A stretch of 64,000 nt of DNA, taken from the NCBI GenBank assembly GCA_964016885.1, contig OZ024743.1:340256001-340320000 (forward strand), read 5' to 3'. Both the position numbers and the translations under genes were made by a program. The notes below the pieces were generated by a model. It searched no databases, was not told the origin of the DNA, and saw only the letters and a list, made by a program, of their open reading frames with translations. Of this stretch, positions 17,721-64,000 are shown in pieces (position 1 is the first letter of the stretch; each line of letters starts with the position of its first letter). Origin of the DNA: Eledone cirrhosa (Eukaryota).

Positions 17721-18014
17721 TTTGTATGTATATGTTATATATGTATGTATACGCGTGTCTGTGTTTGCGTATATGTGTATAAAACAAAAATCCAATTCGA
17801 AAGCAATTATTATAAATTGTATGACAATATTGAGCAACTGTCTAATTCTTTTCTTTCTTTATTTATCATATTTATATATAGATCTATTTATATATATGTC
17901 TTCTTCTCTGGTTTCCATCCACATATTTTACATGCTGTCATGTATTTCTATTTTCATATTTCACACACTACAGTTTTCCTTAAATATGGACTTTTTCTCT
18001 GCTTTCTTTTCTCA

Positions 18015-18070
18015 ACCTACCTCCCTACCTACCTACCTACCTACCTACCTATCTATCTATCTATCTATCT
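18015..18070. repeat. (TACC)n/(TATC)n microsatellite at the 5' junction of Tx1 copy A
   Basis: Read directly. Confidence 0.9.
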
Positions 18071-18101
18071 CTGGGATGGACACACGCGTATAACTTGCTG
18101 A

Positions 18102-18168
18102 GTAAGTTCTGTTTAAATTTCTATAGAAATTCTTGTCTGATAACTTTAATTTTTGTACCATTTTGTAG
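18102..18168 (+). other. Putative 67-nt spliceosomal intron in copy A 5'UTR
   Basis: GTAAGT ... AT-rich ... TTTTGTAG; equivalent segments in copies E, F and G. Confidence 0.55.
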
Positions 18169-18286: not shown

Positions 18287-20078
18287 ATGGCCGAAGCTTC
18301 TTCACCAAAATTCGAAGGAGGAAAGGGGAAGATGAACTTACAGCTTCCCCCCTGCCACTGTCACAGTAGCAGAGGTCAAGAAGAAAGGTCAGCCAGAGGA
18401 AGAATTCTCTCCACCTGTTAACCGACAACTTGACGTTGCCATGGCAACAACCCAAAGAACCAGCAGCAACAGCAACAACAACAATCCAACGGACGAAAAC
18501 AACACCAATAACAATAACAATAACAACAACAAGACCAATAACGGTGACAACAACAACAATGATAACAACAACACCACCAACGACAACAACAACACAAACA
18601 AACAAAATTTCTCCTTCGCCGAGACGACAAGGAAAACCCTCGACTATCTGCCAGTAGATATAACCAAAGCGAAGGAGCTACTGGCGGATGCGAAAAAATA
18701 TATAGTGTACGGAGAAAATGGTTCATTCACAATCCATTCCCCCCCCCGGAACTAAAAAGCCAGAGACTCCTAAACACGGTCATGTTTAGGACAATCTCGA
18801 ACAAAAGTAAAAAACCAGCTCAACCATCACAGAGCGAGATAGAGCTGGTTTTAAAAGACGTCATGAAGGACATCACCTTCATTCAGAAGGATAGACTCTA
18901 CGGGAGTCTATCCATTCTCATGAAGGACAGGGACACAGCAGTGAAACTGTCCATCAAACCAATCACATCCACCGCATACACCTTCTACCCTACGTACATG
19001 GGTAGAAGAACACAAAAAATAAAAATCCACACCATCCTGCCGATTATGGACATATGGTGGGTTTTGACAGGTTTTCTGGACCTGGAGGATGACATGCTGG
19101 TGTCCATGGGAAAGGCATCGGGTGACGCGTTCAGTGGAACGAGCCTCGAACTTGTAGTTCAAATGAGGCCCGAAAGGATCGCCCAGATCCCTGAACGCGT
19201 CATACTGGATGATCTAACCTTCATCAACATTACCGTTGAGGGTAGACGGCCCTCGTGTTACCTCTGCGGAACCAGAGGTCACCTGAGGGCTGTCTGTCCC
19301 CAACTTAATAAGAAAACCCCAATCCTGCCTACACCACCAACAACTGCACAACCAACACAATCACCACAACTACCACTACATAAACAACCACCACAGCTCA
19401 AACCAAAACAAAACAATGTCCAACCCATCCCCTCCACTCAAAAAACAAAAACAATTTCCAAAACACCCGTACCGCAAACACAACCCGAAAATATACCCCT
19501 CCCCTCCAACGCGGAAGACGACCCTAGTTCGTCGTCAGACGAGGAGGAGCACTTCCACACAATCAAAAGAAAAAAAAGAAAACACACCTCAGACACACAA
19601 ATGAAAACAACCCCTCCCCAAAACATAACACTGACACCAACACAAAAGAGCTCACAACAACAGCAAACAAAAAACACCACACAAAAACAAAAACATGCAT
19701 ACACATACATAAACACAAGAAACAAAAAACTGTTAAACATTGTGTACAACAACAATCTAATAAAAACACAAGGGCCTAACTTCACCCAGGCAGGGGATTT
19801 CCCCCACCTCAAAATGATTAAGGCCCCACAGGACACCTATAAAACTTTAAAAAACAATTTTAAAGAGGACGTGGGTCCCCCCTGCGTCGGGCCCATTAAC
19901 CGCGTCCTCCTAAAAAAACTATCCCACCCCCTCCCCAAACACCCACACAACTCCAAGCTCCCCAACCACACAACACACTGATGCCCCTACACTTCCACAA
20001 ACCACCACCCCACCCAACAACCCATCCCCCACCCTAATGGAAATTGTGTAGCCCGATACCCGGGACGCAGAGAGGTAA
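18287..20078 (+). pseudogene. Copy A ORF1 (gag-like, Asn-rich N-terminus, CX2CX4HX4C knuckle), frameshifted
   Basis: CYLCGTRGHLRAVC; ORF pieces 18441-18755 and 18782-19981; C-terminal TTTPPNNPS..MEIV*PDTRDAER* is homologous to the copy D ORF1 end. Confidence 0.85.
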
Positions 20079-20102
20079 GTGCCTTTTCTCTTCACCACCA
20101 AC

Positions 20103-23100
20103 ATGGCTATGCTAAGAGTAGGCTGTTTAAATGCGCGTGGCCTGGGCTCAACTTGGAAGCAAGCAATGCTTCTAAATGACCTCAGGTCACAACGTATAGA
20201 TGTGATGGTTATTTGCGAGGCCCGGATCAGCAACGTGCGACAGCTGGCCCCCACCTTTGATGACTTTGAGATGCACGCATCTCTCTGTCAGCCCGGAGGT
20301 GGGGGTGGAGTTGTCGTTCTGCTGCAAAAACATCTGGGTCTCGCAACACAGATGGTACATTTGGACCCGGAGGGTCGACTAGTGGTTCTGGACCTTGGCA
20401 GTGGTAAAGGCGGAGCGTTTAGGTTGGTAGCCGCCTACGGCCCTTTCGGGTCAATGCGGCCGGACTTCTTCCATCGTCTGGAGACTTTTCTAGGGACGTC
20501 CCGCTCCTTGCTATTAGTGGGGGACTGGAATGGTATCCTAGATGCACGCTGGGACTACGTAGGGGCCTGTCCCGATAGAGAGGGGTGTAATAGCCTCAAA
20601 GGGTTAATCGGTCGATTTGACCTGGCCGATAGATATCGACTAGATTTTCCGACTGCGCCAACCTGGACTTGGGCAAATCGTAGCGGAACATCTAGGTCGT
20701 ACCTAGATAGGTTCTTAGTTAGAATTAAGGATAAGGACTTTTTAAGTTGTCCAAAAATGCGCATGGTTGGCTATTCAGACCACAAATTAGTGACCTGCAT
20801 GGTCAACCTTGACAGAACTCATAGACAGGGACCCGGTTACTGGAAGCTCAACTTGTCCTTACCGGCAAGTAAGGCTTACAGGAACCGGATTAGCACTTTA
20901 GTTAAGGAGCGGTTGACGGGCGCCATCGTCAACAGCAGGTGGTGGGGATCTCTCAAAAGAGAGATTAGAGTAGTCTCTATAGAATTTAGTAAGGAGTTAG
21001 CCTCCAATAGAAATAGGAAGGAAAGGGAGTTGGTAGATAGTGTAGAAGAGGCAATTAGAAGCGGCGACGTGGCCAGAGTGCTAGCGTCGAGAACGGCCCT
21101 GGGCCAGTTCTTCGACGCGAAACACGAAGGCTGCATCGTCCGAAGCAAAATACGTGCTCTGGGAAACGAGGGGACCAAAGCTGTTAGCTGGGCCCGCGTG
21201 ACAGAAGCCAAAAGAGGGAGCAGATCCACTATCCGGTCTTTGCGAGACCAGGATGGACGGGTGATCCTTGAACCTAAGCAGATGTGCGAGGCTTTTCAAA
21301 AGCACTTTGCCGAATTGTTCGGAAGGGGCGGGGGGCCGGTTGGGGACGTGGACTTCGGTCCATACCTCGACGGCCTGCCGCGTCTCTCGGACAGGGAGGC
21401 GAAGTCCTGCGAGGAGCCGATTTCAGCCGCTGAGATAGAGGACGTGCTGAGCCAATGCGGCAAACGGAAATCCCCGGGTCTCGATGGTCTTCCTTACGAA
21501 TTATATCTAGCTATGCCGGACTTGTTCCCCGATCTCATCGAGGCGGTCTACTGCAACTGGCAACAGAACGGGAGAATTCCCTGTACTGTGACCAAGGGCG
21601 TAGTCACGCTAGTGAGGAAGGACGAGAACAAGGGGGACGAAATAAGTAACTTCAGGCCCATAACTCTGCTAAATACAGAGTTACAGATTTTGGCCAAGGT
21701 GCTAGCAAAGAGGTTGGCGCTTGTCGTGGGCAACCTGGTGGGAGATGCGCAGACATGTGCTATCCCGTCCAGGTCCATCCATGACAACCTCCACCTCATG
21801 CGATACATCATAGAGAGGGTTGGGAACGAACCCGGCTTTGGTGGGGCTCTGATCAACTTGGATCAATCTAAGGCGTTCGATAGAGTCGACCATGGTTACC
21901 TGGATGCGGTGCTAGCGGCGGCAGGCTTCGGACCCGTTTTCAGGGGCTGGATCACTGCTATGCACAGCAGCCGCATCTGCTCTAGGGTCAAGGTGAACGG
22001 CTACCTCTCGGAGCCGTTCAAAATCGCGCGGTCAAGGGTGCCCTCTCTCCTCCCTTCTGTATTTGTTGACTCTCGAGCCACTACTGCGGAAGTTGGAGTT
22101 GTTGCAGGGCATCCCTTTGGAACCGGGATTGCGGAAAGCGGTGTCAGCCTACGCCGATGACGTGACAGTAATGGTGTCGACGGCCTCCGAAATCGAGGCG
22201 GTCGGCACCTTACTGGAGGAGTACGAAAAGTTCACAGGGGCTAAGCTGAACCGGGACAAGTCGATCGGTTTGCAACTCGGCACGTGGAGGGGCAGACCGA
22301 TGCCCTCCGATGGCGTCGTCGGACGCTGGACGGAGGGCCCGGTGAAGTTGCTCGGGGTCTGGTTCGGACCGAACCTCCAGGTGGAGAAAAACTGGGCGGA
22401 GGTTACGAACAGGGTGTTTGCACTGACCCAGAAGTGGGCCAGTTGCAAACTATCCCTGAAAGGTCGGGCGGAGGTGGCGAACACTTATATAGCGTCCGTC
22501 ATCTACTACCGCCTGACCGTAGTGCCCTGCCCAAGGGAAACCCTCACCAAGATGGAGCGCGCACTCTTCCAATTCCTTTGGAAGAGGCGGGCTCCTATGG
22601 TGAGGAGATCCATCTGCTGTCAACACCCTTCGAAAGGAGGGCTGGGGATGCCGTAGCTAATGGTGCGTAAACACGCATTAAGGCTACGGCACCTCTACGT
22701 ATTCCTCACCGGACAACCGGTGTGGGCCTCGTTTGTGAGACGAACCTTTCCCAGACTCGTCTCACTCACCGAGCTGCAATCCTGGGTCAAGCAAAGACCG
22801 AGAAAACTGGGCGCCTGGCACACTGAGTGTGCCCAGGCGCTCACCGCCCTCTGGCAGGCGGATCCGGTTATCAGTGGAGACTCCACCGCAACATTCTATA
22901 GAGGGCTGGTACGCAGCAGGTGCGACGACGCCCTCGGAGAAGCCCTAGACATGGAGGAGGACGAACTGGCCAGCCTGTTCGGTAGGACATTCATCCCGGG
23001 ACCTATGGACAACTTCCAGAAGTCCCTGGCCTGGCAGTGCTACCGAGCGGCTTTACCCGTTCGAGAAAGGCTCTACAGACACGGGCGCCCGGGTAGGGAC

Positions 23101-23532
23101 CCCGCCAAAAAGATCTGTCCCAGATGCGTGTGCGACGAGGAAACCGTTGCACACGCATTGGTACACTGCTCGGGCGTAGCCGATCTGTGGGGCTATGCCG
23201 AACAACTGCTGTCAAGGGTGGGACCGTTCCGGTTGACCACCGAGTCTGTTGTAATGATCAAGCCGCCTCCCCCCTTCAAAGATGAAGCAGAGGCGGTGTT
23301 TCTGTGCGTAATAGCCATGGCGAAAGAGGTTGTATGGTGGACGCGTCTGAAAGGACTGAGGTCAGGCACCTTTCTCTCTGGCCAACAACTGGTCCGTTTC
23401 TTCCGATATCATTTCGGAAGAAGGATCAGGATGGAGAGAGAGGTGCTGCACCCCAGTCGTTTTTATGAAAGGTGGGTGAAAGTGGCGAGAATGGCCCGTG
23501 TGAATGGGCCTTCTCTTTACATAAGCCTGTAG
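20103..23532 (+). pseudogene. Copy A ORF2 (APE endonuclease + RT + C-terminal Cys/His finger), one frameshift and one nonsense
   Basis: NARGL, ICE, GDWN, YLD, SDH; KSPGLDG, NFRPITLLN, LDQSKAFDRV, YADD; CPRC..ETVAH..C. Small deletion near 22033 and TAG at 22654-22656. Confidence 0.95.
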
Positions 23533-23780
23533 GTGGAAAAGAGGAAGGAACGAGGGAGCACCCCCTCTCTGTGCTCCTGAGGAAAAGGGGGTGTGTGTGC
23601 GACCCCCCAAGGCGCCTCCTCTCTATTGAGGATTTTGTTATAAATTTTATTTTTTGTTATATCTTATTTTATTTTTATATTTTGTTATTGCCTCCTCCTT
23701 ATTGAGGACGCCTTTTTGTGTAAACTCCCCCCTTTGTACTTGTCCCACTTTTGATGCCCTAGTGGCAAATAAAAGAAACA

Positions 23781-24088
23781 TATCTATCTATCTATTTATC
23801 TACCTACCTACCTCACTCTCTACCTATCTATTTATCTACCTACCTCACCGTCTACCTATCTATTTATCTACCTACCTATCTATTTATCTACCTACCTACC
23901 TACCTATCTATTTATCTACCTATCTATTTATCTACCTACCTCACCGTCTACCTATCTATTTATCTACCTACCTATCTATTTATCTACCTCCCTACCTACC
24001 TACCTACCTACCTACCTACCTACCTACCTATCTATTTATTTACCTACCTACCTACCTACCTACCTACCTACCTACCTACCTACCTACC
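23781..24088. repeat. (TATC/TACC)n tract between copies A and B
   Basis: Read directly. Confidence 0.95.
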
Positions 24089-26678
24089 TGACAGAAGCCA
24101 AAAGAGGGAGCAGATCCACTATCCGGTCTTTGCGAGACCAGGATGGACAGGTGATCCTTGAACCTAATCAGATGTGCGAGGCTTTTCAAAAGCACTTTGC
24201 CGGATTGTTCGGAAGGGGCGGGAAGCCGGTTGGGGATGTGGACTTCGGTCCATATCCTGACGGCCTGCCGCGTCTCTCGGACAGGGAGGCGAAGTCCTGC
24301 GAGGAGCCGATTTCAGCCGCTGAGATAGAGGACGTGCTGAGCCAATGCGGCAAACGCAAATCCCCGAGTCTCGATGGTCTTCCATACGAACTATATCTAG
24401 CTATGCCGGACTTGTTCCCCGATCTCCTTGAGGCGGTCTACTGCAACTGGCAACAGAACGGGAGACTTCCCTGTGCTGTGACCAAGGGCGTAGTCACGCT
24501 AGTGAGGAAGGACGAGAACAAGGGGGACGAAATAAATAATTTCAGGCCCATAACTCTGCTAAATACAGAGTTACAGATTTTGGCCAAGGTGCTAGCAAAG
24601 AGGTTGGCGCTTGTCGTGGGTAATCTGGTGGGAGATGCGCAGACATGTGCTATCCCGTCCAGGTCCATCCACGACAACCTCCACCTCATGCGATACATCA
24701 TAGAGAGGGTTGGGAACGAACCCGGCTTTGGTGGGACCCTGATCAACTTGGATCAATCTAAGGCATTCGATAGGGTTGACCATGGTTACCTGGATGCGGT
24801 GCTAGCGGCGGTAGGCTTCGGACCCGTTTTCAGGGGCTGGATCAATGCCATGCACAGCAGCCGCATCTGCTCTAGGGTCAAGGTGAACGGCTACCTCTCG
24901 GAGCCGTTCGAAATCGCGCGGTCCATCCAACAGGGGTGCCCTCTCTCCTCCCTTCTGTATGTAATGACTAGAGCCACTGCTGCGGAAGTTGGAGTTGTTG
25001 CAGGGCATCCCGTTGGGACCGGGATTGCGGAAAGCGGTGTCAGCCTACGCCGATGACGTAACAGTAATGGTGTCGACGGCCTCGGAAATCGGGGCGATCG
25101 GCACCTTACTGGAGAAGTACGAAAGATTTACAGGGGCTAAGCTGAACCGGGACAAATCGATCGGTCTGCAACTCGTCACGTGGAGGGGCAGATCGATGCC
25201 CTCCGATGGCGTCGTCGGGCGCTGGACGGAGGGCCCGGTGAAGTTGCCCGGGGTCTGGTTCGGACCAGACCTCCAGGTGGAGAAGAACTGGGGTGAGGTA
25301 ACGAACAGGGTGTTTGCACTGACCCAGAAGTGGGCCGAGTGCAAACTGTCCCTGAAAGGTCGGGCGGAGGTGGCGAACATTTATATAGCGTCCGTCATCT
25401 ACTACCGCCTGACCGTTGTGACTTGCCCAAGGGAAACGCTCGCCAAAATGGAGCGCGCACTCTTCCAATTCCTTTGGAAGAAGCGGGCTCCTATGGTGAG
25501 GAGATCCATCTGCTGTCAACACCCTTCGAAAGGAGGGCTGGGGATGTGTAAACACGCATTAAGGCTACGGTACCTTCACGTATTCCTCTCCGGTCAACCG
25601 GTGTGGGCCCCGTTTGTGAGGCGAGCCTTTCCCAGACTCGTCTCACTCACCGAGCTGCAATCCTGGGTCAAGCAAAGACCGAGAAAACTGGGCGCCTGGC
25701 ACACCGAGTGTGCCCAGGCGCTCACGGCTCTCTGGCAGGCGGACCCGGCTGTCAGTGGAGAATCCACCTCGTCATTCTATAGAGGGCTGGTGGTTAGCAG
25801 GTGCGACGACGCCCTCGGAGAAGCCCTAGGCATGGAGGAAGACGAACTGGCAAACCTGTTCGGTAGGACATTCAGCCCGGGACCCATGGACAACTTCCAG
25901 AAGTCCCTGGCCTGGCAGTGCTACAGAAGGGCTCTGCCCGTTCGAGAAAGGCTCTACAGACACGGGCGCCCGGGTAGGGACCCCTCGAAAAAGATCTGTC
26001 CCAGATGCGTGTGCGACGAGGAAACCGTTGCACACACATTGGTACACTGCTCGGGCATTGCCGATCTGTGGGGCTATGTCGAACAACTGCTGTCAAGGGT
26101 GGGACCGATCCGGTTGACCACCGAGTCTATTGTAACGATCAAGCCGCCTCCCCTCTTCAAAAACGAAGAAGAGGCGGTGTTTCTGTGCGTAATAGCCATG
26201 GCGAAATAGGTTGTATGGTGGACGCGTCTGAAAGGACTGAGGTCAGACACCTTTCTCTCTGGCCAGCAACTGGTCCGTTTCTTCCGATATCATTTCGGAA
26301 GAAGGATCAGGATGGAGAGAGAGGTGCTGCGCCCCAGCCGTTTTTATGAAAGATGGGTGAAAGTGGCGAGAATGGCCCGTGTGAATGGGCCTTCACTCTA
26401 CATCAGACTATAGGTGAGGAAGATGAAAGACCAAGGGAGCACCCCTTCTCTGTGCGCCTGAGGAAAAGGGTTGCACACTTTTTTTCGTGGGTGTGTGCGA
26501 CCCCCCAAGGCGCCTCCTCTCTATTGAGGACTTTGTTATAAATTTTATTTTTTGTTATATTTTATTTTATTTTTATATATTGTTATTGCCTCCTCCTTAT
26601 TGAGGACGCCTTGTTTTGTAAACTCCCCCAATTGTACTTGTCCCACTTTTGATGCCCTGGTGGCAAATAAAAGAAACA
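24089..26678 (+). mobile_element. Tx1 copy B, 5'-truncated (no EN), same subfamily as A
   Basis: Begins at the equivalent of 21199 in A; RT ORFs 24130-25056 and 24989-26209; same 3'UTR; followed by (TATC)-like repeat. Confidence 0.93.
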
Positions 26679-26738
26679 TATCTATTTATCTACCTATTTA
26701 TCTACCTAAATCACTATCTATTTACCTATCTATTTACT

Positions 26739-28935
26739 GCTGTTAGCTGGGCCGGAGTGACGGAGGCGAAAAGTGGCAACAAGTCCACGATTCGATCTTT
26801 GAAGGACCAAGACCGACGCGTGATAAGTGAGCCGAAGCAGATGTGCGCGGCCTTTCAGCGGCACTTTGCTCAACTGTTCGGGCAAGGTGGCGCGCCGGGA
26901 GGGGCTATGGATTTCGGTCCATACTTCGACGGCCTACCGCGACTCTCGGACAGCGAGGCGAAGTTTTGCGAAAGGCCGATTTTGACCGCTGAAATAGGGG
27001 ACGCGCTGAGCAAATGCGGAAAACGCAAATCTCCAGGTCTCGACGGTCTACTCTACGAATTTTGCGTAGCAGTGCCGGACTTGTTCTCCGGTCTCCTGGA
27101 AGCGGTCTACAGAAACTGGCAGCAGAACGGGAGAATTCCCAGTTCTGTGACCAAGGGCGTAGTCACGTTAGTCAGGAAGGACGAGAATAAGAGGGATGAC
27201 ATAGGCAATTTCCGGCCCATAACTCTGCTCAACACAGAGTTACAGATTTTGGCCAAGGTGTTGGCAAAGAGGCTGGCGCTTGTCGTCGAAAACCTGGTGG
27301 GAGAAGCGCAGACATGCGCAATCCCGACCAGGTCCATACACGACAACCTCCGCCTCATGCGATACATCATAGAGAGAGTAGGGTGTAAACCAAGCTTCGG
27401 TTGGGCCCTGATCAACTTGGATCAGTCTAAGGCTTTCGTTACCTGGATGCGGTGCTCGAGGCGGCAGGCTTCGGACCCGTGTTCAGGGGCTGGTTTGCTG
27501 CAATGCACAGCAGCAACATCTGCTCAATGGTCAAGGTGAACGGCTACCTCTGGGAGCCGTTCCATATCACGCGATCCATCCGACAGGGATGCCCTCTCTC
27601 CTCCCTTCTGTATGTACTGCCTCACGAGCCACTACTGCGGAAGTTGGAGCTATTGCAGGGCATCCTTTTGGAACCGGGACTGCGAAAAGCGGCGTCCGCC
27701 TACGCCGACGACGTGACAGTAATGGTGTCGAGCACCTCACAAATCGGAGATCGAATACGAAAGGTTCACAGGAACGAAGCTGAACCAGGACAAATCCGTC
27801 GGTTTGAAACTCGGAACGTGGCGAGGCAAACCGATGCCTTCCGATGGCGTCGTCGGATGCTGGACGGAAGGACCGGTAAAGGTGGAGAAGAACTGGAACG
27901 AGGTGACGGCCAAGGTGTTTGCGCTCACCCAGAAGTGGGCCGAGTGCAAACTATCCTTGAAAGGTCGAGCGGAGGTGGCGAACACTTTTATAGCGTCCGT
28001 CATTTACTACCGCTTGACCGTTGTGCCTTGTCCAGCCAAATCGCTCACCAAAATGGTGCGCGCGCTCTTCCAATTCCTTTGGAAGAAACGGGCTCCTTTG
28101 GTGAGAAGATCTATCTGCTGCCAACATCCTTCAAACCGAGGGCTGGGGATGCCGTGACTGACGATGCGCAAACACGCACTCAGGCTGCGGCACCTCCACG
28201 TATTCCTCACCGCACAACCGGTGTGGGCCCCGTCTGTGAGGCGAGCGTTCCCACGACTCGTCTCGCTGACCGAGCTGCAGACCTGGGTCAAGCAAAGACC
28301 GAGGAAAATGGACGACTGGCACATCGAATGTGCTCAGGCGCTCACTGTCCTGTGGGAAACGGACCCGGCGATCAGTGGAGACTCCACGTCGACATTCTAT
28401 TCAGGGCTGGTCCGCAGCAAGTGCGACGACGCGCTCGGAGAAACTCTAGGCGTAGAGGAAGACCTTCCGCCCGGGACCAATGGACAACTTCCAAAAGTCC
28501 CTGGCCTGGCAGTGCTACTGAGGAGCTCTACCAGTTCGAGACAAGCTCAACAGACACGGGCGCCCGGGCAGGAACCCTTCGAAAAAGATCTGTCCGAGAT
28601 GCGTGCGTGACAGGGAAACCGACGCGCACGCATTTGTACACTGCCCGAGCGTTACCAACCTGTGGGGCTATGTAGAACGACTATTGTTGCGGGTGGGACC
28701 AATCCAGTTGACCACCGAGTCCATTGTCATGATCAAACAGCCACCCTCCTTCAAAAAGGAGGAAGAGGCGGTTTTCCTATGTGTTACGGTTATGGTGAAA
28801 GAGGTTATATGGTGGACGAGGTTAAAAGGGCTGAGGTCAGACACCTTTCTCTCCGGCGATCAACTGATTCGTTTTTCTCAAATATCATTTTGGAAGAAGA
28901 ATCAGGATGGAGAGAGAGGTAATGTACCCGAGCAA
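26739..28935 (+). mobile_element. Tx1 copy C, 5'-truncated, 3' end deleted; subfamily of D
   Basis: Begins at the equivalent of 21180 in A; RT fragments with several short deletions; fused to copy D at CAAAATTT (28933-28940). Confidence 0.9.
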
Positions 28936-31900
28936 AATTTCTACCGGAATTTTGAATATAGCCAAAATGGCCAAATTCTTTGACCTCATCTTCACAAAAA
29001 ACACATCAGAGAATTGTAGAGATGGGCTGTCAATATCACCTTCCACAGCACTAGTAACAGGTGAAGGCTGTCTGCCTGCTGCTATCACCAACAACAGCAA
29101 CAGCAACAACAACAGCAACAAAAACAACAACATCAAATCTGTCAGCCAACAATTAGACAGAGGTGGTGGAGGGACGGTAAAACTGTCAAGCCAAGAAGCA
29201 GCTCGCACCGCCTCGTTGAAACACTTCGATATGTTTAAAACCCACCCTGACAACAACACCAGCACCACCAACACGAAAACTGTGAATGGCACAAACCAAA
29301 ACAACGCCATCAACAACAACAGTGACAACGAGAACAAGAAGAACAACAACGACAACAAAACCACAACCAACAACAACAAAAACAACACCAACAACGGAAA
29401 AAACGAAAACAACATCAACAATAAGAACAATAATAACAACAACAAGACCAATAACTGCAACAAGGAAGTAAACGACAAAATTTCATTTGCGCAAACCGTA
29501 AAGAAAACGGTAAGCTACACTTCGGTAGATATTTCAAATGCAAATGAGCTTTTGAATAACGCCAGACAATATGTAACTTTTGGGGAGAACGGATCATTCT
29601 CCATAAACTCTCCCCCAGATTTGCGAAGAGAAGCTGCCTTGAAAACTGTGATTTTCAGGACAATCTCAAATAAAACACGAAAACCGACGCAACTTTCACA
29701 AGGCGAAATTGAGTTGGCTTTAAAAAATACATTAAAAGACATTGCTTTTATTCAGAAGGAAGGGAAGTTTATCCATTCTAATGAAAGACCAATTGACGGC
29801 GCATAAATATTCTGTGTCGCCAATTGTGTCACCGCTGTTCACTCTTTTCCCCACTTACATGTGGAAAAAGACACAGAAAATAAAAATCCAAAGTATCACA
29901 CCAAATATTGACATTTGGTGGGTACTATGTGGATTTTTAAACCACGAAATAGACTATATAATATCGGTAGGTAAGACCTCTGGCGACCTGTTCAGCGGAA
30001 CTAGCCTGGAAGTTCTGGTCCAAATGACACCAGAACGAATAGCTAGGATCCTGGAACCTGTGTTGCTGGATGGGCTTATATACATAAACATTTCGGTCGA
30101 GGGTAGGCGGCCCTCATGTTACCACTGCTCAAGCAGGGGTCACCTGAGAGCTTCCTGTCCTCGGCTAACTAGACAAAAAAAGGCACTACTGCCAACACCT
30201 GCAACACCAGCACAACAATCACCACCACCACCACCACAACAACAACAACATAAAAAAATAGTGACAACAAAATAAATTACAAACACAGTGCCACCCAATC
30301 CTCCCCACCTAAAACAACTCCAGAAACACCCACACACATAACAGCTCGCCAAAACGTACCCCTCCCCAACAACACGGATGAGGCCTCATCATCGTCACCC
30401 AGTGACGATGAGGGAGAGACTTTCCGACCAGTAAAAAGAAAAAAGAAAAGACATAACACAAACAAAATTGCAACAAACACACAAATACCCACACAAGCGA
30501 TGCAAACAGCACAAACAGAAACACCCCCTCCTGAAAACAAAACACCTACTACAAAACGTAAACACACACAAGAACCACAGACAAAAAGCAACCCAACACA
30601 ACAAAAATGTTACACCTACATAAATACTAACAATAAAACTTTAAAAGACACCATATATAAAAACCCTTCAGTGGAGACCGAAGGGAAAACTTTTACACAC
30701 TCTTCGGAGAATCCTAATCTTAAAATGATTAGGACCTCCATGGACACACATAAACAGTTAAAAGAAAAATTTCCTAACGACGTAGGTAACCCCTGCGTCA
30801 AACCCTACAATCGAGTCTTGTTAAAATGTTTCCCCACCCCCACCCCCATCCCACCAGACACCTCCTCCCCACCAAACATCTCTGTCCCCTTCCCTCCAGA
30901 GACCACCACCCCACCAAACAACCCCTCCAACACCCCCATGGAAATTGTGCAGCCTGGTCCCCAGGAGACGAAGAGGTGAGTGATTTCTTTTCCTCTTCTG
31001 TTAACTTTTCAGCACCAACATGGCCAATATAAGAGTTGGATGTGTGAATGTACGCGGCCTGGGAATGCCCTGGAAACAGGGCAAACTCTTAAACGATCGC
31101 AGGTCGCACAGCATGGATGTAGTAGCAATTTGCGAGTCTAGGATCCACAGCGAGCGACAACTGGCCCCCATCTTCGACGACTTTGAGATCTACGCATCTC
31201 TGTCAGCCGGGAGGTGAGGGTGGGGTTGCCGTTTTGCTGCGGAAACACCTGGACCTCGTAACACCGACGGTACATCTGGACCCGGAGGGTCGACTGGTGG
31301 TCCTAGACGTTGACGGTAGTGAAGGTGGAGCCTTCAGACTGGTGGCCGCATATTCCCCATCCGGGACACCGCGGCCAGACTTCTTCAAACGTCTAGAGAC
31401 TTTTCTGGGAACGTCCCGCTCCCTGCTGTTAGTGGGGGACTGGAATGGAATCCTAGATGCAAGTTGGGACTATGTGGGAGCATGTCCCGATATAGGGGGT
31501 GTAACAGCCTCAAACAGTTATTCGGCCGATTTCAACTGGCCGATTGATATCGACTAGATTTTCCGACTGTGCCACTGTGGACGTGGACTAACCGCAGCGG
31601 AACATCTAGATCGAACCTAGATAGGGTTCTAGTTAGAAAGAAGGATAGGGACATGTTAAGCTGCCCACAAATGTTCATGGTTGCCTATTCAGATCACAAA
31701 TTAGTGACCTGCTTAGTCAACCTTGACAAAACCCATAGACAGGGACCCAGCTACTGGAAGCTGAACTTGTCGTTACCGACATGCAAAGCCTACAGTAGAC
31801 GGATTAGCACTTTAGTTAAGCAGCACTTGACGGGGGCCATTGTCAACTCTCTCAAGAGGGCAGTTAGATTAGACTCGATAGGTTTTAGTAAAGAATTAGT

Positions 31901-34597
31901 GTTAGATAGAAATAAGACCGAAAAGGAACTGGTAGATAAAGTAGAAGAGGCACTTAGGAGTGGCAACGTAGCCAGCGTGCTAGCGACGAGAACGTTCTTC
32001 AACGCAAAGCATGAAGGCTGCGTTGTCAGAAGCAAAATACGTGGTCTGGGAAACGAGGGAGCCAAAGCTGTTAGCTGGGCCCGAGTGACGGATGCGAAAA
32101 GTGGCAACAAGTCCACGATTCGGTCTTTGAAGGACCAAGACGGACGCGTGATACGTGAGCCGAAGCAAATGTGAGCGGCCTTTCAGCGGCACTTTGCTCA
32201 ACTGTTCGGGCAGGGCGGCGCGCCAGGAGGGGCTATGGATTTCGGTTCATACCTCGACGGCCTACCGCGACTCTCGGACAGCGAGGCGAAGTTCTGCGAA
32301 AGGCCGATTTTGGCCGCTGAGATAGGGCACGCGCTGAGCCAATGCGGCAAACGCAAATCTCCAGGTCTCGACGGTCTACCCTACGAATTTTACGTAGCAA
32401 TGCCGGACTTGTTCTCCGGTCTCCTGGAATCGGTCTACAGAAACTGGCAGCAGAACGAGAGAATTCCCAGTTCTGTGACCAAGGGCGTAATCACGTTAGT
32501 CAGGAAGGACGAGAACAAGGGGGATGACATAGGCAACTTCCGGCTCATAACTCTGCTCAACACAGAGTTACAGATTTTGGCCAAGGTGTTGGCAAAGAGG
32601 CTGGCGCTTGTCGTCGAAAACCTGGTGGGAGAAGCGCAGACATGCGCAATCTCGACCAGGTCCATACACGACAACCTCCACCTCATGCGATACATCATAG
32701 AGAGAGTAGGGTGTAAACCCGGCTTCGGTGGGGCCCTGATCAACTTGGATCAGTCTAAGGCTTTCGATAGGGTTGACCATCGTTACCTGGATGCGGTGCT
32801 CGAGGCGCCAGGTTTCAGTCCCGTGTTCAGCGGATGGATGCTGCAATGCACAACAGCAACAATGCTCAAGGGTTAAGGTGAACGGCTACCTCTCGGAGCC
32901 GTTCCATATCACGCGATCCATCCGACAGGGATGCCCTCTCTCCTCCCTTCTGTACGTACTGACTCTCGAGCCACTACTGCGGAAGTTGGAGCTACTGCAG
33001 GGCATCCCTTTGGAACCGGGACTGCGAAAAGCGGCGTCGGCCTACGCCGACGACGTGACAGTAATGGTGTCGAGCACCTCGCAAATTGGGGAGATCGGCA
33101 CCTTACTGGAGGAATACGAAAGGTTCACAGGAACGAAGCTGAACCGGGACAAAGCCGTCGGTTTGCAACTCGGAACGTATAGAGGCAGACCGATGCCTTC
33201 CGATGACGTCGTCGGACGCTGGACGGAAGGACCGGTAAAGCTGCACGGGGTCTGGTTTGGTCCTGACCTCCAGGTGGAGATTAACTGGAAAGAGGTGACG
33301 GCCAAGGTGTTTGCGCTCACCCAGAAGTGGGCCGAGTGCAAACTACCCTTGAAAGGTCGAGCGGAGGTGGCGAACACTTTTATAGCGTCCGTCATCTACT
33401 ACCGCTTGACCGTTGTGCCTTGTCCAGCCAAAACGCTCACCAAAACGGAGGGCGCGCTCTTCCAATTCCTTTGGAAGAAACGGGCTCCTTTGGTGAGAAG
33501 ATCCATCTTCTGACAACACCCTTCAAACGGAGGGCTGAGGATGCCGTGGCTGACAATGCGCAAACACGCGCTCAGGCTGCGGCACCTCCACGTATTCCTC
33601 ACCAGACAACCGGTGTGGGCCCCGTTCGTGAGGCGAGCCTTCCCACGACACGTCTCGCTGACCGAGCTGCAGACCTGGGTCAAGCAAAGACCGAGGGAAA
33701 TGGGCGACTAGCACATTGAATGTGCTCAGGCGCTCACAACCCTCTGGCAAACGGACCCGGTGATCAGTGGAGACTCCACTTCGACATTCTATAGAGGGTT
33801 GGTCCGCAGAAAGTGCGACGAGACGCTCGGAGAAAATCTAGGCGTAGAGGAGGACGAACTGGCCAGTCTCTTCGGTAGGACCTTCCGCCCGGGACTAATG
33901 GACAACTTCCAAAAGTCCCTGGCCTGGCAGTGCTACAGAGGAGCTCTACCAGTTCAAGACAAGCTCTACAGACACGGGCGCCCGGGTAGGGACCCTTCGA
34001 AAAAGATCTGTCCGAGATGCGTGCGTGACGAGGAAACCGTCGCACACGCATTTGTACACTGCCCGGGCGTTACCAACCTGTGGGGCTATGTAGAACGACT
34101 ATTGTTGCGGGTGGGACCAATCTAGTTGACCACCGAGTCCATTGTCATGATCAAACCGCCACCCTCCTTCAAAAACGAGGGAGAGGCAGTTTCCCTATGT
34201 GTTATGGCTATGGTGAAAGAGGTTATATGGTGGACGAGGTTAAAAGGGCTGAGGTCAGACACCTTTCTCTCCGGCGAGCAACTGATTCGTTTTTTAAAAT
34301 ATCATTTTGGAAGAAGAATCAGGATGGAGAGAGAGGTGCTGTACCCCAGCAAATTTTATAAAAGGTGGGTGAATGTGGCAAAGATGGCTCGAGGGGTTGG
34401 GCCTTCTCTCTATATAAGCCTGTAGGTTGAGGAAAAATAGGACGGGGTGTGTACAACCCCTGTGTAACACCTCACCCCTATTGGGGATTTCAATTGTTAT
34501 TTGTCACTGTATTAATGGTTTTATTTTCATACACCTGTAAGTAAACTCCCCATTTGTATTTGTCCCCTTCTTTTGTGCCCTTGTGGTATTAAAGAAA
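28936..34597 (+). mobile_element. Tx1 copy D, ORF1 + ORF2 + 3'UTR, 5'UTR mostly deleted
   Basis: ORF1 28967-30979 (CYHCSSRGHLRASC) and ORF2 31020-34425 with multiple frameshifts; ends ATTAAAGAAA then (TATC/TACC)n. Confidence 0.93.
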
Positions 34598-34806: not shown

Positions 34807-37800
34807 GGAATTAATCTAGCTGTCGTCTGTTCTACAGTGTGGATGTAATTCACTTCGCGCAGAAGTTTTGTTCAAATTTATTGCGGAAATTTTGTGAGTT
34901 CAAATTTAATTTTGATACTATTGTGTAGCTTGACCCCCCGTCTGAACTGTCAGGCGGTGGGTCAGCTCATCTTTACCCCTCCTAGAGGTGAAAAACCTGT
35001 TTTAAAAAATGTTATGGCAAAAAAAATTTCAATCGTCTGACAGAAATGTTAAACGAAACGAACGAAAATAGTGGTGGGGGGACAGCGGTAAGAGTTGTAA
35101 GCTCGCACGCTTTAGTCCCCCCTTCCTTCCCAACTAACGTCATAGAGAAGGAAGGAAAAAATAAAATAAAAACAGACGAATCTGCGGAGAAAAATGACGA
35201 AAACACAATTCTGGACATGGATTCCAACAACGGAAAAAAAAAAATTTGAAAAATTGCATGACAATACTAATACCACAAACAAAGACACAACAAACACAAA
35301 AATAACATTTGAAAATAACACCATAACAGAAAGCAAAGCAGACGACAGAGTCAACAAGATTTCATTTGCACAAAAAACAAAGAAATCTTTGACATATATA
35401 CCTGAAAATATTTCAGTTGTGGCACGAAAAATCACAGACGCCAAACAATACATAAGTGAAGGAGAGAATGGTATTTTATCGGTAAAAATGCCTCAAGAAC
35501 TCACCAAAGACATTGAAAGTCGAACGGTCATGTTCCGCACCATCAACAACACTTCAAAAAAACCTGAACAGCCAACTCAGGCAGATATCAAAACAGTACT
35601 CACAGAAGTACTTAATGAAACCACTTTCATAAGAAAAGACAGACTGTATGGAAGCCTAGCAATCATTATGAAGAACGAATCGGCGGCCAAAAAAATGTGC
35701 TTTGTCACCGATTCGTTCGAAAATTTTTACCTTTTATCCATCTTATATGGGTAAAAGAACTCAACGCATATGGCTGGATGCAATGATGCCAGATGTGGAC
35801 TACTGCTGGCTCATAGCTGGCTTCATCGATCCAGTGAATGACAACGTGATTTCCATTGGGAAAACCACAGGCAATGCGTTCAGTGGAACAGGTATAGAGC
35901 TGGTAGTGCAAATGAAGTCTGAACGCATCGCCCAAATACCCGACAGAATCCTATTAGAGGGCCACGGGTATATAAACATTAGCGTGGAGGGGAGAAGGCC
36001 GTCCTGTCATATCTGTGCAGGCAGAGGGCACCTGAAGGCCGCTTGTCCCCAACTCAACAAAAAGAAAACCCTGCTACCAACACCAGCTCCACCACCACCA
36101 CCTTTCAAAGGCACTTTGCCCGATTGTTCGGGGGAGGCGAGGGTCCGGGCGGGAACGTGGATTTCGGTCCATACCTCGACGGCCTGCCGCGTCTCTTGAG
36201 CGAAGAGGCAGAGTCCTGCGAGGGACCAATCTCGGCTGATGAGATCGGAGATGCGCTGAGCCAATGCAGCAGACGCAAATCTCCAGGTCTCGATGGTATA
36301 CCTTACGAACTTTATTTATCAATGCCGGTCTTCTTCTCCGAACTCCTCGAAGCGGTCTACTGCAATTGGCAGCAGAACGGGAGAATTCCTTGTTCTGTAG
36401 CCAAGGGCGTAGTCACGCTGGTGAGGAAGGACGAGAACAAGGGAGATAGTATAAATAATTTTCGGCCCATAACCCTGCTAAACACAGAGTTAAAGATTTT
36501 GGCCAAGGTGTTAGCAAAGAGGTTGGCGCTTGTCGTGGGTGGCCTGGTGGGAGATGCGCAGACATGTGCTATCCCATCCAGGACCATTCACGATAACCTC
36601 CACCTCATGCGATACATCATAGAGAGGGTTGGCAACAAACCCGGCTTCGGTGGGGCCCTGATCAACTTGGATCAGTCTAAGGCCTTCGATAGGGTCGACC
36701 ATGGTTACCTGGATGCGGTGCTAGCGGCGGCTGGGTTCGGTCCTGTTTTCAGAGGCTGGATCACTGCCTTACATAGCAACCACATCTGTTCTAGGATCAA
36801 GGTGAACGGCTACCTTTCGAAGCCGTTCGAAATCACACGATCCATTCGACAGGGGTGCCCTCTCTCCTCCCTTCTGTACGTATTGACTCTAGAGCCTTTA
36901 CTGAGGAAGTTGGAGTTGTTGCAGGGTATCCCCCTGGAACCAGGATTGAGCAAAGCGGTGTCGGCCTACGCCGATGACGTAACAGTAATGGTATCGACCG
37001 ACTCGGAGATCGAGGCGATCGGTACCTTACTGGAGGATTACGAAAGGTTGTCAGGAGCGAAACTGAACCGGGAAAAATCCATCGGGCTGCAACTCGGAAC
37101 GTGGAGAGGCAGACCGATGCCTCCCGACGGTGTCGTCGGACACTGGACGGCGGGCCCGGTATAGTTGCTTGGGGTATGGTTTGGACCGGACCTCCAGGTG
37201 GAAAAGAACTGGAACGAGGTTACGAACAAGGTGTTTGCACTAACCCAGAAACGGGCCAAGTGTAAGCTGTCCCTAAAAGGCCGGGCGGAGGTGGCGAACA
37301 TTTACATAGCGTCCGTCACTTACTACCGCCTGACTGTCGTGCCTTGCCCTAAGGAAACACTCACCACCATGGAACGCATGCTCTTCCAATTTCTTTGGAA
37401 GAAGCGCCTTCCTATGGTGAGGAGATCCATCTGCTGCCAACAACCTTCGAAAGGAGGGCTGGGGATGCCGTGGTTGATGATGCGTAGGCACGCATTAAGG
37501 CTACGGCACCTACAGGTATTCCTCACTGGTCAACCGGTGTGGGCTCCGTTCGTGAAACGAGCCTTTCCGAGACTCGTCTCGCTCACCGAGCTACAGTCCT
37601 GGGTCAAGCAAAGATCCGGAAAACTGGGAGACTGGCACACTGAGTGTGCTCAGGCGCTCAGGGCTCTCTGGCAAGCGGGCCAGGCCATCGGTGGAGAATC
37701 CACCTCATCATTCTATAGAGGGCTGGTGGCTAGCAGGGGCGATGACACCCTTGGAAAGTCGCTGGACATGGAAGAAGACGAACTGGCCAGCCTGTTCGGT

Positions 37801-38418
37801 AGGACTTTCGGCCCAGGATCAATGGACAACTTCCAGAAGTCACTGGCCTGGCAGTGCTACCGAGGGGCTCTACCCGTTCGAGAGAGGCTCTACAGACACG
37901 GGCGCCCGGGCAGGGATCCCTCAAAAAAGATTTGCCCTAGATGCGTGCGTCACGAAGAAACCGTTGCGCACGCATTGGTGCAATGTCCGGGCGTGGCTGA
38001 TCTGTGGGGCTACGCCGAACGACTGCTGTCGCGGGTGGCGCCGATTCAATTGACCGCCGAGTCCGTGATGACAATCAAACCGCCTCCCCTCTTCACAAAA
38101 GAAGCAAAGGCGGTTTTTCTGTGCGTAATAGCCATGTTGAAAGAGGTTGTTTGGTGGACACGATTGAAAGGTCTGAGGTCAGGCAACTTCCTCTCTGGCC
38201 ATAGTCTGGTCTACTTCTTCCGATATCACTTCGGAAGAAGGATAAGAATGGAGAGAGAGGTGCTTGGCCACAGGCAGTTTTATGAAAGGTGGGTGATAGT
38301 GGCGAGAATGGCTCGTGTAAATGGGCCTTCTCTGTATACCATCCTGTAGGTAAAGAAGTAAAGGAGAGGGGAGCACCTTCTCCATGTGCTCCCCGGGCAA
38401 AGGATTGCACACTTTTTC
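34807..38418 (+). mobile_element. Tx1 copy E: 5'UTR + ORF1 N-part (35014-36100) joined to EN-less ORF2 (36101-38349)
   Basis: CHICAGRGHLKAAC knuckle, then an abrupt switch to FQRHFARLF..RT..YADD..CPRC; 3'UTR cut at the junction to copy F. Confidence 0.9.
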
Positions 38419-39679
38419 GCGCTGGTGAGTAAATGTTTTAATTTCATTGGAAACTGCATGAACTGAATCTACATTCTTACACCATTTTGTAGATAAGCTG
38501 CCACCCTACACTTTGTAGGTGGTACCAACCCCAAATAATAAGCCCATCAGGGCGAAAAACGGAGAAATCCCACAAAATTTCTACCGGAATTTTGAATATA
38601 GCCAAAATGGCTAAATTCTTTGACCTCATCTTAACATGTGTCGCCAATTGTGTCACCGCTGTTCACCTTTTTCCCCACATACATGGGGAAAAGAACACAG
38701 AAAATAAAAATCCAAAGTATCACACCAAATATTGACATTTGGTGGGTACTATGTGAATTTTTAAACCACGAAACAGACTATATAATATCGGTAGGTAAGT
38801 CCTCCGGCGACCTGTTCAGCGGAACTAGCCTGTCCAAATGACACCAGAACGAATAGCTTGGATCCCGGAACCTGTGTTTCTGGATGGGCTTATATACATA
38901 AACATTTTGGTCGAGGGTAGGCGGCCCTCATGTTACCACTGCTCAAGCAGGGGTCACCTGAGAGCTTCCTGTCCTCGGCTAACTAGCCCCCAAAAAGGCA
39001 CTACTGCCAACACCTGCAACACCAGCACAACAATCACCACCACCACCACAAAATAGTGACAACAAAACAAACGACAAACACAGTCCCACCGAACCACTCC
39101 CCACCTAAAACAACTCCAGAAACACCCACACACATAACAGCTCCCCAAAATGTACCTGTCCCCAACAACACGGATGAGGCCTCATCATCGTCACCCAGTG
39201 AGGATGAGGGAGAGACTTTCCGACCAGTAAAAAGAAAAAAGAAAAGACATAACACAAACAAAAAGGCAACAAACACACAAACACCAACACAAGCGACGCA
39301 AACAGCACAAACAGAAACACCCCCTCCTGAAAACAAAACAACTACTACAAAACGTAAACACACACAAGAACCACAGACAAAAAGCAACCCAACACAACAA
39401 AAAATGTTACACCTACATAAATACTAACAATAAAACTTTAAAAGACACCATATATAAAAACCCTTCGGTGGAGACCGAAGGGAAAACTTTTACACACTCT
39501 TCGGAGAATCCTAATCTTAAAATGATTAGGACCTCCATGGACACACATAAACAGTTAAAAGAAAAATTTCCTAACGATGTAGGTAACCCCTGCGTCAAAC
39601 CCTACAATCGAGTCCTTCCTGTTAAACTCCCATTTGCATTTGTCCCCTTTCTTTTGTGCCCTTGTGGCTAATAAAGAAA
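38419..39679 (+). mobile_element. Tx1 copy F: internally deleted D-subfamily derivative (5'UTR + part of ORF1 + 3' terminus, no ORF2)
   Basis: Matches D 28933-28992, then 29813-30818, then the last ~60 nt of the D 3'UTR; AATAAAGAAA then TATC. Confidence 0.88.
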
Positions 39680-39703
39680 TTTATCTATCAATCTCGCACT
39701 CAC

Positions 39704-58370: not shown

Positions 58371-58966
58371 GAATGCCATGGTTGACGGAGGCTCGGCTCT
58401 GTAAGGTATAGTAATTTTTAACCGCTATAACAATTGTAAATTGTTTAAAACTTTAACCAAATTGTAGATAAAAACACCCTCCTCCTCGTGAAAGGGGTCT
58501 TTCTGCCCGTTATTTGGCCCTTCAGGGTTAAATAATCGCTTATTGGGGTTTTGTGCCCAATATTCGTTTTAAACCCCAAAAAAACATGGCTACAAAAAAG
58601 AATTTTCACAAGTCACTCACACTCATTCCGTCTTCTTCTTCCTCAATCGTCACTACATCAGAGAGAAGATTGTCTCTCTCCCTCCCTTCTCTAAATGTGT
58701 CTCTCTCCCTCCCTTCTCTTTCGCAAGCGACGCCAGTAAAGAAAAAGAAAAATATAGTTTCTGATAATTTCCAAGAGCACGTGCAAACCGAGGAACATTT
58801 CTCCACGACGACGACAACGACGAAAAATGTGTGCGGTAAATACGGAAAGCCATTTCATTCGTCTGACGTCATGAATAATAGCAGTAGCAGCCGTATTAAC
58901 AGCAGCAGCAGCAACAGTGACAAGGAAAACAACAGTAGCAACCGCAATAGCATCAGCAGCAGCATA

Positions 58967-59012
<46 letters not shown>

Positions 59013-62000: not shown

Positions 62001-64000
62001 ACGGACTGCCGCAGCTCTCGGCCACTGAGGCGGAGTGTTGCGAAAAGCCGATAACAGCCGCTGAAGTACGTGAGACAATGACTGGCTGCACAAGGGGTAA
62101 ATCGCCTGGTTTGGATGGTCTGCCTTCTGAACTTTACGTACAGATGCCAGACTTGTTCGGAGGCCTCTTGGCGGACGTCTACTGCAACTGGCAACAGAAC
62201 GGGAGAATTCCCGACTCTGTGAGCCGAGGAGCGGTGGAGCCGCTGAGAAAGGATCCGAACAAGGGGGATAACAGATAATTTCAGGCCCATAACTCTGCTA
62301 AACACAGAGTTCAAGATTTTGACTAAGGTGCTAGCAAATAGGTTGGCGCTTGTCGTTGGTGGTCTGGTGGGAGAAGCGCAGACATGCGCCATTCCCGACA
62401 GATCCATCCACGACAACCTCCACCTCATGCCATACATCGTAGAGAGGGTAGCTAGGGAACCTGGCACGGCTGGGTCTTTGATCAATTTAGATCAGTCGAA
62501 AGCTTTCGATAGGGTCGAAGGCGGCTTGCTTTGGGCCCGTCTTCAGAGGCTGGATCACTACCATGCACAGCGACATTTCCTCTGTGGTGAGAGTGAACGG
62601 TCACCTTTCAGAACCGTTCAACATCATGCTCTCGGTCCGCCAAGGATTTCCCCTCTCGTCCCTATTGTACGTATTGACTCTCGAGCCATTACTGCACAAA
62701 CTGGAGACGTTGAGGGGGGGTCCCGCGCGAACTAGGATGCGGAAGATCCGTGTCAGCATATGCGGACGATGTCACCGTAGTGGTGTCGAACGCCAAACAC
62801 ATCGAGGCGATCGGCACTACACTAAGAGAATACGAAGCGGTGACAGGAGCAATGATAAACCAGGAAAAGTCAGTGGGCCTGCAGCTCGGCACATGGAGAG
62901 GCAGGACCATGCCGTCCAACAGCGTCTTCGGGCGCTGGACGACGGACCGGTTAAATTGCTAGGGGTCTGGTTCGGTCCGGACCTCCAGACGGACAAAAAC
63001 TGGGACGAGGTGACGAGCAGGGTGGCTTCTCTCACCCAGAAATGTGCGGAGAGGAAGCTATTCCTAAAAGTTCGAGCGGAGGTGGCTAACGCGTACATCG
63101 CGTCCGTCATCCACTACCGCCTGACCGTCGTACCTTGTCCTAAGCACCGCCTGACTGCGCTGGAGCGTTTACTCTTTCGCTTTTTGTGGAAGGGACACGC
63201 TCCGATGGTCAGGCGGTCCATCTGTTGTCAACACCCGCAACGTGGGAGGCTGGGCATGCCGTGGCTGATGATGCGTAGACACGCGCTCAGGCTACGACAT
63301 CTCCACCTCTTCCTCGACGGTGCTCAGGTGTGGTCGCTGTTTGCTAGACGCGTCTTTCCCCAGCTCGTTTCCTTGACGGAGCTACAGTCCTGTGTCAAGC
63401 GAAGACCGAGAGGGAGCGCTTGGAGACTGGAATGTCTTCAGGCGCTCACAGCCCTCGACCTATCGGGCAATGTGATCGGTGGAAACTCAACCTTGGCGTT
63501 CTATAGAGGATTAGTGGAGGGGAAGAGCGACAACGTACTTGGGAAAACTCTAGGCCTCGACGAAAATCAACTAGCCAATCTCTTTGGAATAACTTTCGGG
63601 CCGGGGCCTATGGACAATTTCCAGAAATCCCTGGCCTGGCAGTGCTACTGAGGAGCTTTGCCAGTTCGGGATAAACTCTACAGGTATGGAGGTGCCGTCA
63701 GCCAGGCATGTCCGAGATGCGCGCAGGGCGACGAAACTGTCCTGCACGCACTCGTCCAGTGTCCGAGCATTGCTGACTTGTGGGTTTATGTCGAACACCT
63801 GCTGTCACGTGTAGGACGGATCCAGCTATCAGCTGAGTCCATCGTGAGGATTGCCCCGCCCTCTTACTTTAACCGGGAAGGGCAGGAAGTTTTTATCTGT
63901 CTGGTGGCCATGGCGAAAGAGATAGTATGGTGGACACGTTTGAAAGGGCTGAAGACGAGCACTTACTTCTTCAGTGATGCCCTGATTAAATTTTTCAAAT
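58371..64000 (+). mobile_element. Tx1/L1-clade LINE copy G (divergent subfamily), runs off the window
   Basis: 5'UTR after (TTA)n; ORF1 58586-60697 (CFRCGSKTHLRAFC); ORF2 from 60732 (NARGL, GDWN, TDH, KSPGLDG, KAFDRV, YADD, CPRC); frameshifted. Confidence 0.93.

Follow-up and report, generated by a model that had tools for sequence, protein, structure and literature searches.

A U1-complementary 5' splice site consensus at the ORF1 end in one lineage of Tx1-like LINEs

The window, a stretch of 64,000 nucleotides (64 kb) of Eledone cirrhosa DNA analysed at its full length, contains seven copies of a LINE. Six decayed copies (A to F) lie head to tail in TACC/TATC repeats between positions 18075 and 39690, and A to E sit in the TACC/TATC repeats of one locus. 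The seventh, copy G, is more divergent; it adjoins a TTA repeat, starts near 58380 and extends past the end of the window (Table 1). In copy A, PF03372 and PF00078 score above cut-off and place an APE endonuclease before a reverse transcriptase (RT) in ORF2. The CCHC family PF00098 stays below cut-off in A, D and E (E-values 0.005-0.04), and the C-C-H-C spacing is aligned across all ORF1s. By their architecture and microsatellite setting the copies are putatively Tx1-like. The best named protein match is GAB1601854.1 of the octopod Argonauta hians (61-63% identity). A search with a single ORF1 sequence gave no match. An ORF1 profile matched 596 proteins, and the best 120, which were examined, are mostly unnamed relatives of the distant family described below; none of these 120 has an alternative C-terminus traceable to splicing. 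Within the 64-kb window no Rfam family reached its gathering score and no tRNA was found, and Rfam matches in four loci were at chance level only.

Several other features of the window were recorded. Copies B and C and the ORF2 part of E start (24089, 26739 and 36101) within about 115 nt of one place in ORF2 (21180-21294 in copy A), which suggests a truncation or recombination hot spot. The internal join of copy F is a short-homology deletion about 160 nt upstream of the place of the donor and is not a splice product; in having no ORF2, this copy resembles HAL1, an ORF1-only LINE derivative. At 16375-17780, between TATG repeats, a 720-nt unit is duplicated in tandem with 95% identity. A 427-nt inverted repeat at 45021-46047 has arms that share 98% identity and are separated by about 180 nt, and a SINE-like dispersed repeat of 190 nt, 87-95% alike, is present on both strands (1301-1492, 6862-7057, 10557-10747, 54681-54865 and 57066-57267). 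Fragments of another retroelement family (1958-3510, 7544-9883, 12138-16001 and 57864-58379) contain ORFs with what we take to be RT-like and nuclease-like motifs; the two ORFs scanned gave no Pfam match at E 0.001.

Table 1. Positions of the LINE copies and of their splice-like signals in the window
Feature	Position	Strand	Remarks
Copy A 5'UTR, intron-like stretch GTAAGT ... TTTTGTAG	18102..18168	+	67 nt; acceptor ranks 1/371 AG sites; donor weak
Copy A ORF1	18287..20078	+	Putative CCHC knuckle; broken by frameshifts and in-frame stop 20049-20051
Copy A donor AG/GTAAGT, AGGTAAGT	20073..20080	+	Overlaps ORF1 Arg-stop; GT at 20075
Copy A spacer	20079..20102	+	24 nt, 75% pyrimidine, no AG; ORF2 in the frame of ORF1
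Copy A ORF2	20103..23532	+	APE endonuclease, reverse transcriptase, C-terminal zinc motif; broken; PF03372, PF00078, PF13966
Copy A ORF2 end, weak candidate acceptor	23507..23540	+	Pyrimidine run, stop TAG then GT; rank 25/264
Copy A polyadenylation signal AATAAA	23768..23773	+	
TACC/TATC microsatellite between copies	23785..24088		Further tracts 18025-18072, 26680-26735, 34600-34805
Copy B	24089..26690	+	5'-truncated; ORF2 end is TAG/GTGAGG
Copy C	26739..28943	+	Both ends truncated; fused to D
Copy D	28967..34425	+	ORF1 28967-30979 and ORF2 31020-34425, each broken
Copy D donor AG/GTGAGT, AGGTGAGT	30974..30981	+	Overlaps ORF1 Arg-stop; GT at 30976
Copy D spacer	30980..31019	+	40 nt; acceptor-like TTTTCAG at 31012, missing in A and G
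Copy E	34810..38420	+	5'UTR and first half of ORF1, joined at about 36100 to mid-ORF2; without junction region
Copy E ORF2 end, TAG/GTAA after pyrimidine tract	38324..38357	+	Best acceptor-like site of the E ORF2 part; rank 1/158
Copy F	38420..39690	+	D-type 5'UTR, part of ORF1, 3' end; without ORF2; join not at donor
Copy F 5'UTR, G/GTGAGT ... TTTTGTAG	38425..38492	+	68 nt; single AG, inside donor; acceptor 1/58
Copy G 5'UTR, weak donor-like sites and AATTGTAG	58401..58467	+	Acceptor 26/425
Copy G	58586..64000	+	ORF1 58586-60697, ORF2 60732 to window end; broken; most divergent copy
Copy G donor AG/GTAAGT, AGGTAAGT	60692..60699	+	At ORF1 end; GT at 60694
Copy G spacer	60698..60731	+	34 nt, 76% pyrimidine, no AG

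The U1-complementary consensus of U2-type 5' splice sites, AG/GTRAGT, is present at the end of ORF1 in copies A, D and G, and all three octamers lie where the original prediction had placed them. When all sense GT sites were ranked by pairing energy with the 5' end of U1, using the motif as generally known and a generic rather than species-specific donor consensus, the site at the ORF1 end came first in A (1/286), D (1/272) and G (1/275). The octamer is not rare in the window: it was found 8 times against a mean expectation of 4.2, and 8 was reached in 4 of 100 shuffles. It exceeds chance in its place and its U1 rank, not in its window count. The donor is kept despite a fourfold-site identity of 67% between A and D and 52% between A and G. 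A claim that the choice between TAA and TGA tracks the R position of the donor is true as stated, although the stop codon alone permits both.

Each ORF1 had been described as ending in Arg (AGG) and a stop codon, at junctions called intact. The ORF1/ORF2 junctions are intact; the elements themselves are decayed. In copy D, the homologous frame from the domain shared with A is unbroken to AGG TGA, so the Arg-stop is the ORF1 end of the family. In copy A, the long ORF1 frame ends at 19981 and its tail holds an in-frame TAG at 20049-20051, so a frame change is needed to reach the ORF1 end. That stop is absent from related copies, in which contigs from sequencing runs aligned to A have C at 20049 throughout the aligned depth; one base is missing at 19912 in some of them (200.9/295 in run X4, only 2999.5/32860 in run X1). 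Four of six sequencing runs, of unspecified kind, were aligned to A, and none of the 15 joints listed (of 342) or the 24 loose ends listed (of 2402) fell at 20074, a result with no bearing on splicing. The frame of copy G is weakly anchored, and a TAA in another frame lies one base before its donor. The ORF1 C-terminus of G had been called unalignable, which holds against A (130 of 1000 shuffles equally good) but not entirely against D, with which there is a weak alignment (6 of 1000).

The spacers that follow have a pyrimidine content of 72-76%, and CAAC stands at their end, directly before the ORF2 ATG (20103, 31020 and 60732), as predicted. The pyrimidine tract can pair with a purine run before the donor and so cover the donor (20066-20092, 30965-31001 and 60680-60716). 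This hairpin folds in A, D and G, with z-scores of 0.39, -1.08 and -0.45, none of them significant.

A distant family was found by an RT-motif scan of a genome collection, which gave 47 loci, 42 of them on eukaryote-like contigs binned into one bacterial MAG, G001. At least 16 such contigs (loci L081-L122 and L128-L162) carry head-to-tail LINE arrays with a period of 6.4-6.8 kb. These contigs contaminate the record of that genome and offer intact, young LINE copies. Eighteen contigs were examined, two of them in part only; their tandem arrays contain 68 ORF2 starts, and many copies are intact. The main family has 44% amino-acid identity to the window copies and belongs to the same RT clade. 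At fourfold sites its representative L089 is 29-36% identical to the window copies, which is near saturation. AAG/GTAAGT occurs at 65 of 65 ORF1-ORF2 junctions of this family, and in L089 it is the best U1 site of the element (1/369). The donor lies one base after the ORF1 stop, in a 14-nt spacer without a pyrimidine tract or CAACATG. The stop overlap, the tract and CAACATG had been proposed as general features, and they do not hold as such: all are missing here. Because the donor of this family lies outside ORF1, after the stop, it is the donor and not the stop overlap that is kept.

The 65 junctions should be counted as about one observation, since invariance within the family is itself not significant. 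Its seven subfamilies are 93-98% identical, 82% of their fourfold sites are invariant, and the chance of seven invariant positions among them is 0.25. The evidential weight lies in the distance between groups and not in copy number within G001. A second G001 family, L081 (a sister family with three copies), has an overlapping stop and start, and the junction donor is absent in all three. In L089, a second stop in the ORF1 frame overlaps the ORF2 ATG (TGATG at L089:4781-4800), as TAATG does in L081. In the main family the ORF1 stop beside the donor may be newer than the stop that overlaps the ORF2 ATG.

The relationships were examined in an RT tree of 45 rows (6 window copies, 28 of 127 loci and 11 proteins), which was unrooted, quickly built and supported by SH-aLRT only. 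One clade of 14 (SH-aLRT 100) unites the window copies, Argonauta, both G001 families and two unnamed proteins. As controls, 82 more distant loci were used, with ORF1 assigned mechanically; an ORF1 stop could be used in 33 and an ORF2 stop in 41, the rest being broken or cut off. GTRAGT was found near the ORF1 stop in 0 of 33 of these distant L1/Tx1 elements and near the ORF2 stop in 3 of 41, against about 2 expected. Near misses were CAG/GTGAGC 12 nt past the stop in L064 and a full donor at +157 in L018. Donor-like sites in two sister elements outside the clade, L023:5067 (after ORF2) and L064:1464 (after ORF1), are possible independent cases. The expectation that related families would carry GTRAGT at the ORF1 stop was thus borne out in the distant G001 family (65/65), but not in distant L1/Tx1 elements (0/33) or in the sister L081 (3/3 without it). 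The donor marks a lineage and not Tx1 as a whole.

The same consensus recurs elsewhere in these elements. In the main G001 family, GTRAGT lies at +14 past the ORF2 stop in 62 of 62 ends and is followed by a U-rich run; variation among the 62 is confined to the R position and the three preceding bases. In seven of them the usual ORF2 stop is lost and ORF2 ends inside the donor, as ORF1 does in the window. CAG/GTAAGT is found 40 nt past the ORF2 stop in L081, where it is the top donor site of the 3'UTR. The stop therefore moves around a fixed donor: it lies inside the donor (A, D and G; 7/62 G001 ORF2s) or 1, 14 or, in L081, 40 nt before it. The ORF2-stop donor is the best site of the 700-nt 3'UTR in eight of nine main-family copies scored. 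In all nine 3'UTRs an acceptor-like pyrimidine tract with TAG, at +253 to +277, ranks first or second on an acceptor score that is home-made and uncalibrated, in UTRs that are T-rich. The 3'UTR of L081 (L081:2069-2117) has a textbook branch point and acceptor, made up of TACTAAC, a pyrimidine tract and a TAG that precedes AATAAA by about 30 nt. Near the end of ORF2, AAG/GTGGGT falls in Arg-Trp-Val codons and belongs to the top U1 sites of four elements (23472 and 34365 in the window, 8166 in L089 and 8181 in L081); it reflects either coding constraint or a further donor.

The 5'UTRs also contain splice-like signals. They have GTAAGT or GTAAGA and several acceptor-like sites. In the window, a TGTAG site is common to the 5'UTRs of A, E, F and G (ranks 1/371, 5/235, 1/58 and 26/425); in A and F it follows a GTRAGT at a distance of 67-68 nt.

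No partner acceptor is conserved among the window copies. All ORF2 stops of the window are TAG followed by GT, with a fair donor only in B and a top acceptor only in E. Joining the ORF1-end donor to the AG of the ORF2 stop rebuilds the Arg-stop in B and E and gives a tail of 32 residues in A and 38 in D; if the AG that lies 7 nt earlier is used instead, the tail in A, B and D has two residues. The ORF2 stop as acceptor is weakened by its ranks (25/264 in A, 31/170 in B), by a second AG that A, B and D have 5 nt upstream of it, and by the length of the tail in A and in D. The ORF2 end of a further variant, seen in run X4, lacks a pyrimidine tract. In G001 none of the 65 ORF1 ends and none of the 62 ORF2 ends belongs to a spliced genomic copy, and copies E and F of the window are joined elsewhere.

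The donor consensus at the ORF1 end is real and lineage-specific, and it is very likely selected. The proposal of a selected U1-complementary site is supported by the 65 of 65 junctions in a distant family, and the site is probably a selected U1-type signal of some kind. What the signal does can be said with less confidence. Our tentative preference is for a selected 5' splice site that would remove ORF2 from part of the transcripts and so yield a predicted ORF1-only mRNA. U1 would bind the donor at the ORF1 end, and in some transcripts the donor would be spliced to an acceptor near the 3' end, with the loss of ORF2. The spliced RNA, an ORF1-only mRNA with a short 3'UTR, would supply ORF1 protein in excess. 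The unspliced RNA would be the source of ORF2 protein and also the template, so inserted copies would keep the signal. The candidate acceptor is the 3'UTR site near +255 in the MAG family; in the window families it would be the ORF2 stop itself or a place immediately upstream. A donor no farther than 50 nt from a stop codon agrees with the exon-junction decay rule, and positions of -3 to +40 from the stop would let the spliced RNA escape such decay. The pyrimidine tract past the donor may be a U1 helper of the TIA type and not an acceptor tract, since TIA proteins bound downstream of a donor bring in U1 (PMC2964331). From sequence, control of ORF1:ORF2 output by this predicted splicing is plausible.

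Two observations speak for this reading: the top U1 rank in A, D, G and L089, and a donor kept across near-saturated distances independently of the stop codon. The ORF2-stop donors with their acceptor-like 3'UTR site, and the 5'UTR donor-acceptor pair of A and F, suggest the same. Against it are the lack of a conserved acceptor in the window copies and of any spliced copy, and L081 without a junction donor. The spacer is also the sole non-coding room in the middle of the element, and position alone is no proof of splicing. A full exon-intron plan is predicted with considerable doubt. It would comprise an intron in the 5'UTR, an exon formed by ORF1, an ORF2 that is removed as an intron in some transcripts only, and an acceptor in the 3'UTR with two alternative stop-adjacent donors; genomic and subgenomic RNA would be split as in retroviruses and copia, and the unspliced RNA alone would be copied.

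The same conservation evidence (65/65, 0/33, U1 rank and fourfold distances) is explained if U1 binds without splicing, the main rival reading, which we think possible but less likely. Spaced 5' splice sites in the 5'UTR and at the ends of ORF1 and ORF2 would keep the polymerase running through an intronless 6-kb unit, or would retain the RNA in the nucleus. Window copies without a conserved acceptor and the absence of spliced copies in G001 agree with it, and there are precedents: unspliced 5' splice sites guard against termination by Restrictor (PMC12211998), and U1 blocks premature termination of unspliced EVD RNA (PMC5580714). However, Restrictor protection is reported to be stronger near the start site (PMC12211998), and it would be left unexplained why the 3'UTR donors stand 14-40 nt past the stop and are followed by an acceptor-like site. 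Protection from premature polyadenylation, part of the original prediction, has no evident target. Among canonical hexamers, the only ones scored, no AATAAA or ATTAAA occurs in ORF2 of A, D, L089 or L081, which counts only weakly against U1 binding without splicing, as about one is expected in each. Upstream hexamers, 188-398 nt before the donor in A, D, G and L089, are not conserved and are missing in several subfamilies, on which ground occlusion of an upstream polyadenylation signal was rejected as a specific model.

An improbable reading is that an element acting in DNA or in translation (a factor site, an internal ORF2 promoter or a re-initiation signal) merely resembles a donor. It has a precedent in human L1, where a donor is kept as a RUNX3 site (PMC5860796). 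In addition, the sequence next to the site has letters in common between A, G and the MAG family, and the motif stands 13-44 nt before the ORF2 ATG. Yet the same consensus appears again after the ORF2 stop and in the 5'UTRs, its variation is found only where donors tolerate it (the R position and exonic -3 to -1), and L081 couples its ORFs by an overlapping stop and start without the motif.

Chance or by-product, in which an Arg codon, a stop and GT look donor-like and are inherited without selection, is quite improbable and already largely refuted. AGG TRA does give six of the eight letters, only three window copies are concerned, two of them 76% alike, and the octamer occurs 8 times in the window. 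Nevertheless, in the MAG family the motif follows the stop codon, beyond the reading frame; the groups have diverged almost to saturation at neutral sites, 0 of 33 controls have the motif and it ranks top in four elements. A tiny spacer intron that fuses ORF1 to ORF2 is most improbable: the best acceptor-like site of D lies 37 nt past the donor and the join would put ORF1 in frame with the ORF2 ATG, but animal introns are seldom as short as 37 nt, the A and G spacers have no AG and the MAG-family spacer is 14 nt long.

LINEs are held to make both of their proteins from one unspliced bicistronic RNA. The elements described here resemble Tx1 elements (Kibi, Koshi and a crocodilian microsatellite-targeting Tx1; PMC4494074) in their ORF2 with APE and RT and, putatively, in an ORF1 with a CCHC knuckle and a microsatellite setting, and they differ in the ORF1-end donor, which is absent in 33 distant L1/Tx1-like elements. 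L1-Tx1 families have been recently active in Octopus vulgaris (PMC13282606). A search of the open literature, Repbase Reports excepted, found no account of a donor at a LINE ORF1 end.

Introns are kept in Penelope-like elements, whose RT class differs from that of these LINEs. Human L1 has donors and acceptors within its transcript, and most of its RNA is unspliced (SpIREs and SpORF2; PMC5860796 and PMC2896524). Its main donor is in the 5'UTR and removes promoter or ORF1 sequence, whereas the strongest donor here is at the ORF1 end and would spare ORF1. Splicing from the conserved L1 donor is uncommon; this donor is retained as a RUNX3 site, and L1 splicing is reported to be harmful (PMC5860796). 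SpIREs are recognised by genomic copies without the donor-to-acceptor interval, of which G001 has 0 of 65 and 0 of 62.

The closest likeness is to the shGAG of Ty1/copia elements (Arabidopsis EVD and Drosophila copia), which have a conserved U1 site close to where the structural ORF ends and need it for splicing as well as for full-length transcription; a spliced subgenomic RNA encodes the structural protein and the unspliced RNA is the genome (PMC5580714). The 3-kb intron of Drosophila copia is the closest in geometry (PMC5580714). Theirs is an LTR element with one gag-pol frame; the present one is a two-ORF LINE with an endonuclease, a polyadenylation signal and no LTR, and its splicing is a prediction. 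Premature polyadenylation soon after the intron, a trait of shGAG, has no counterpart in canonical signals here, as ORF2 of A, D, L089 and L081 lacks them. The predicted donor-driven ORF1-only mRNA would be a trick known from other retroelements. If true, it would be a third solution to the problem of the ORF1:ORF2 ratio, convergent with copia, or else a case of a LINE that recruits U1 for its transcription.
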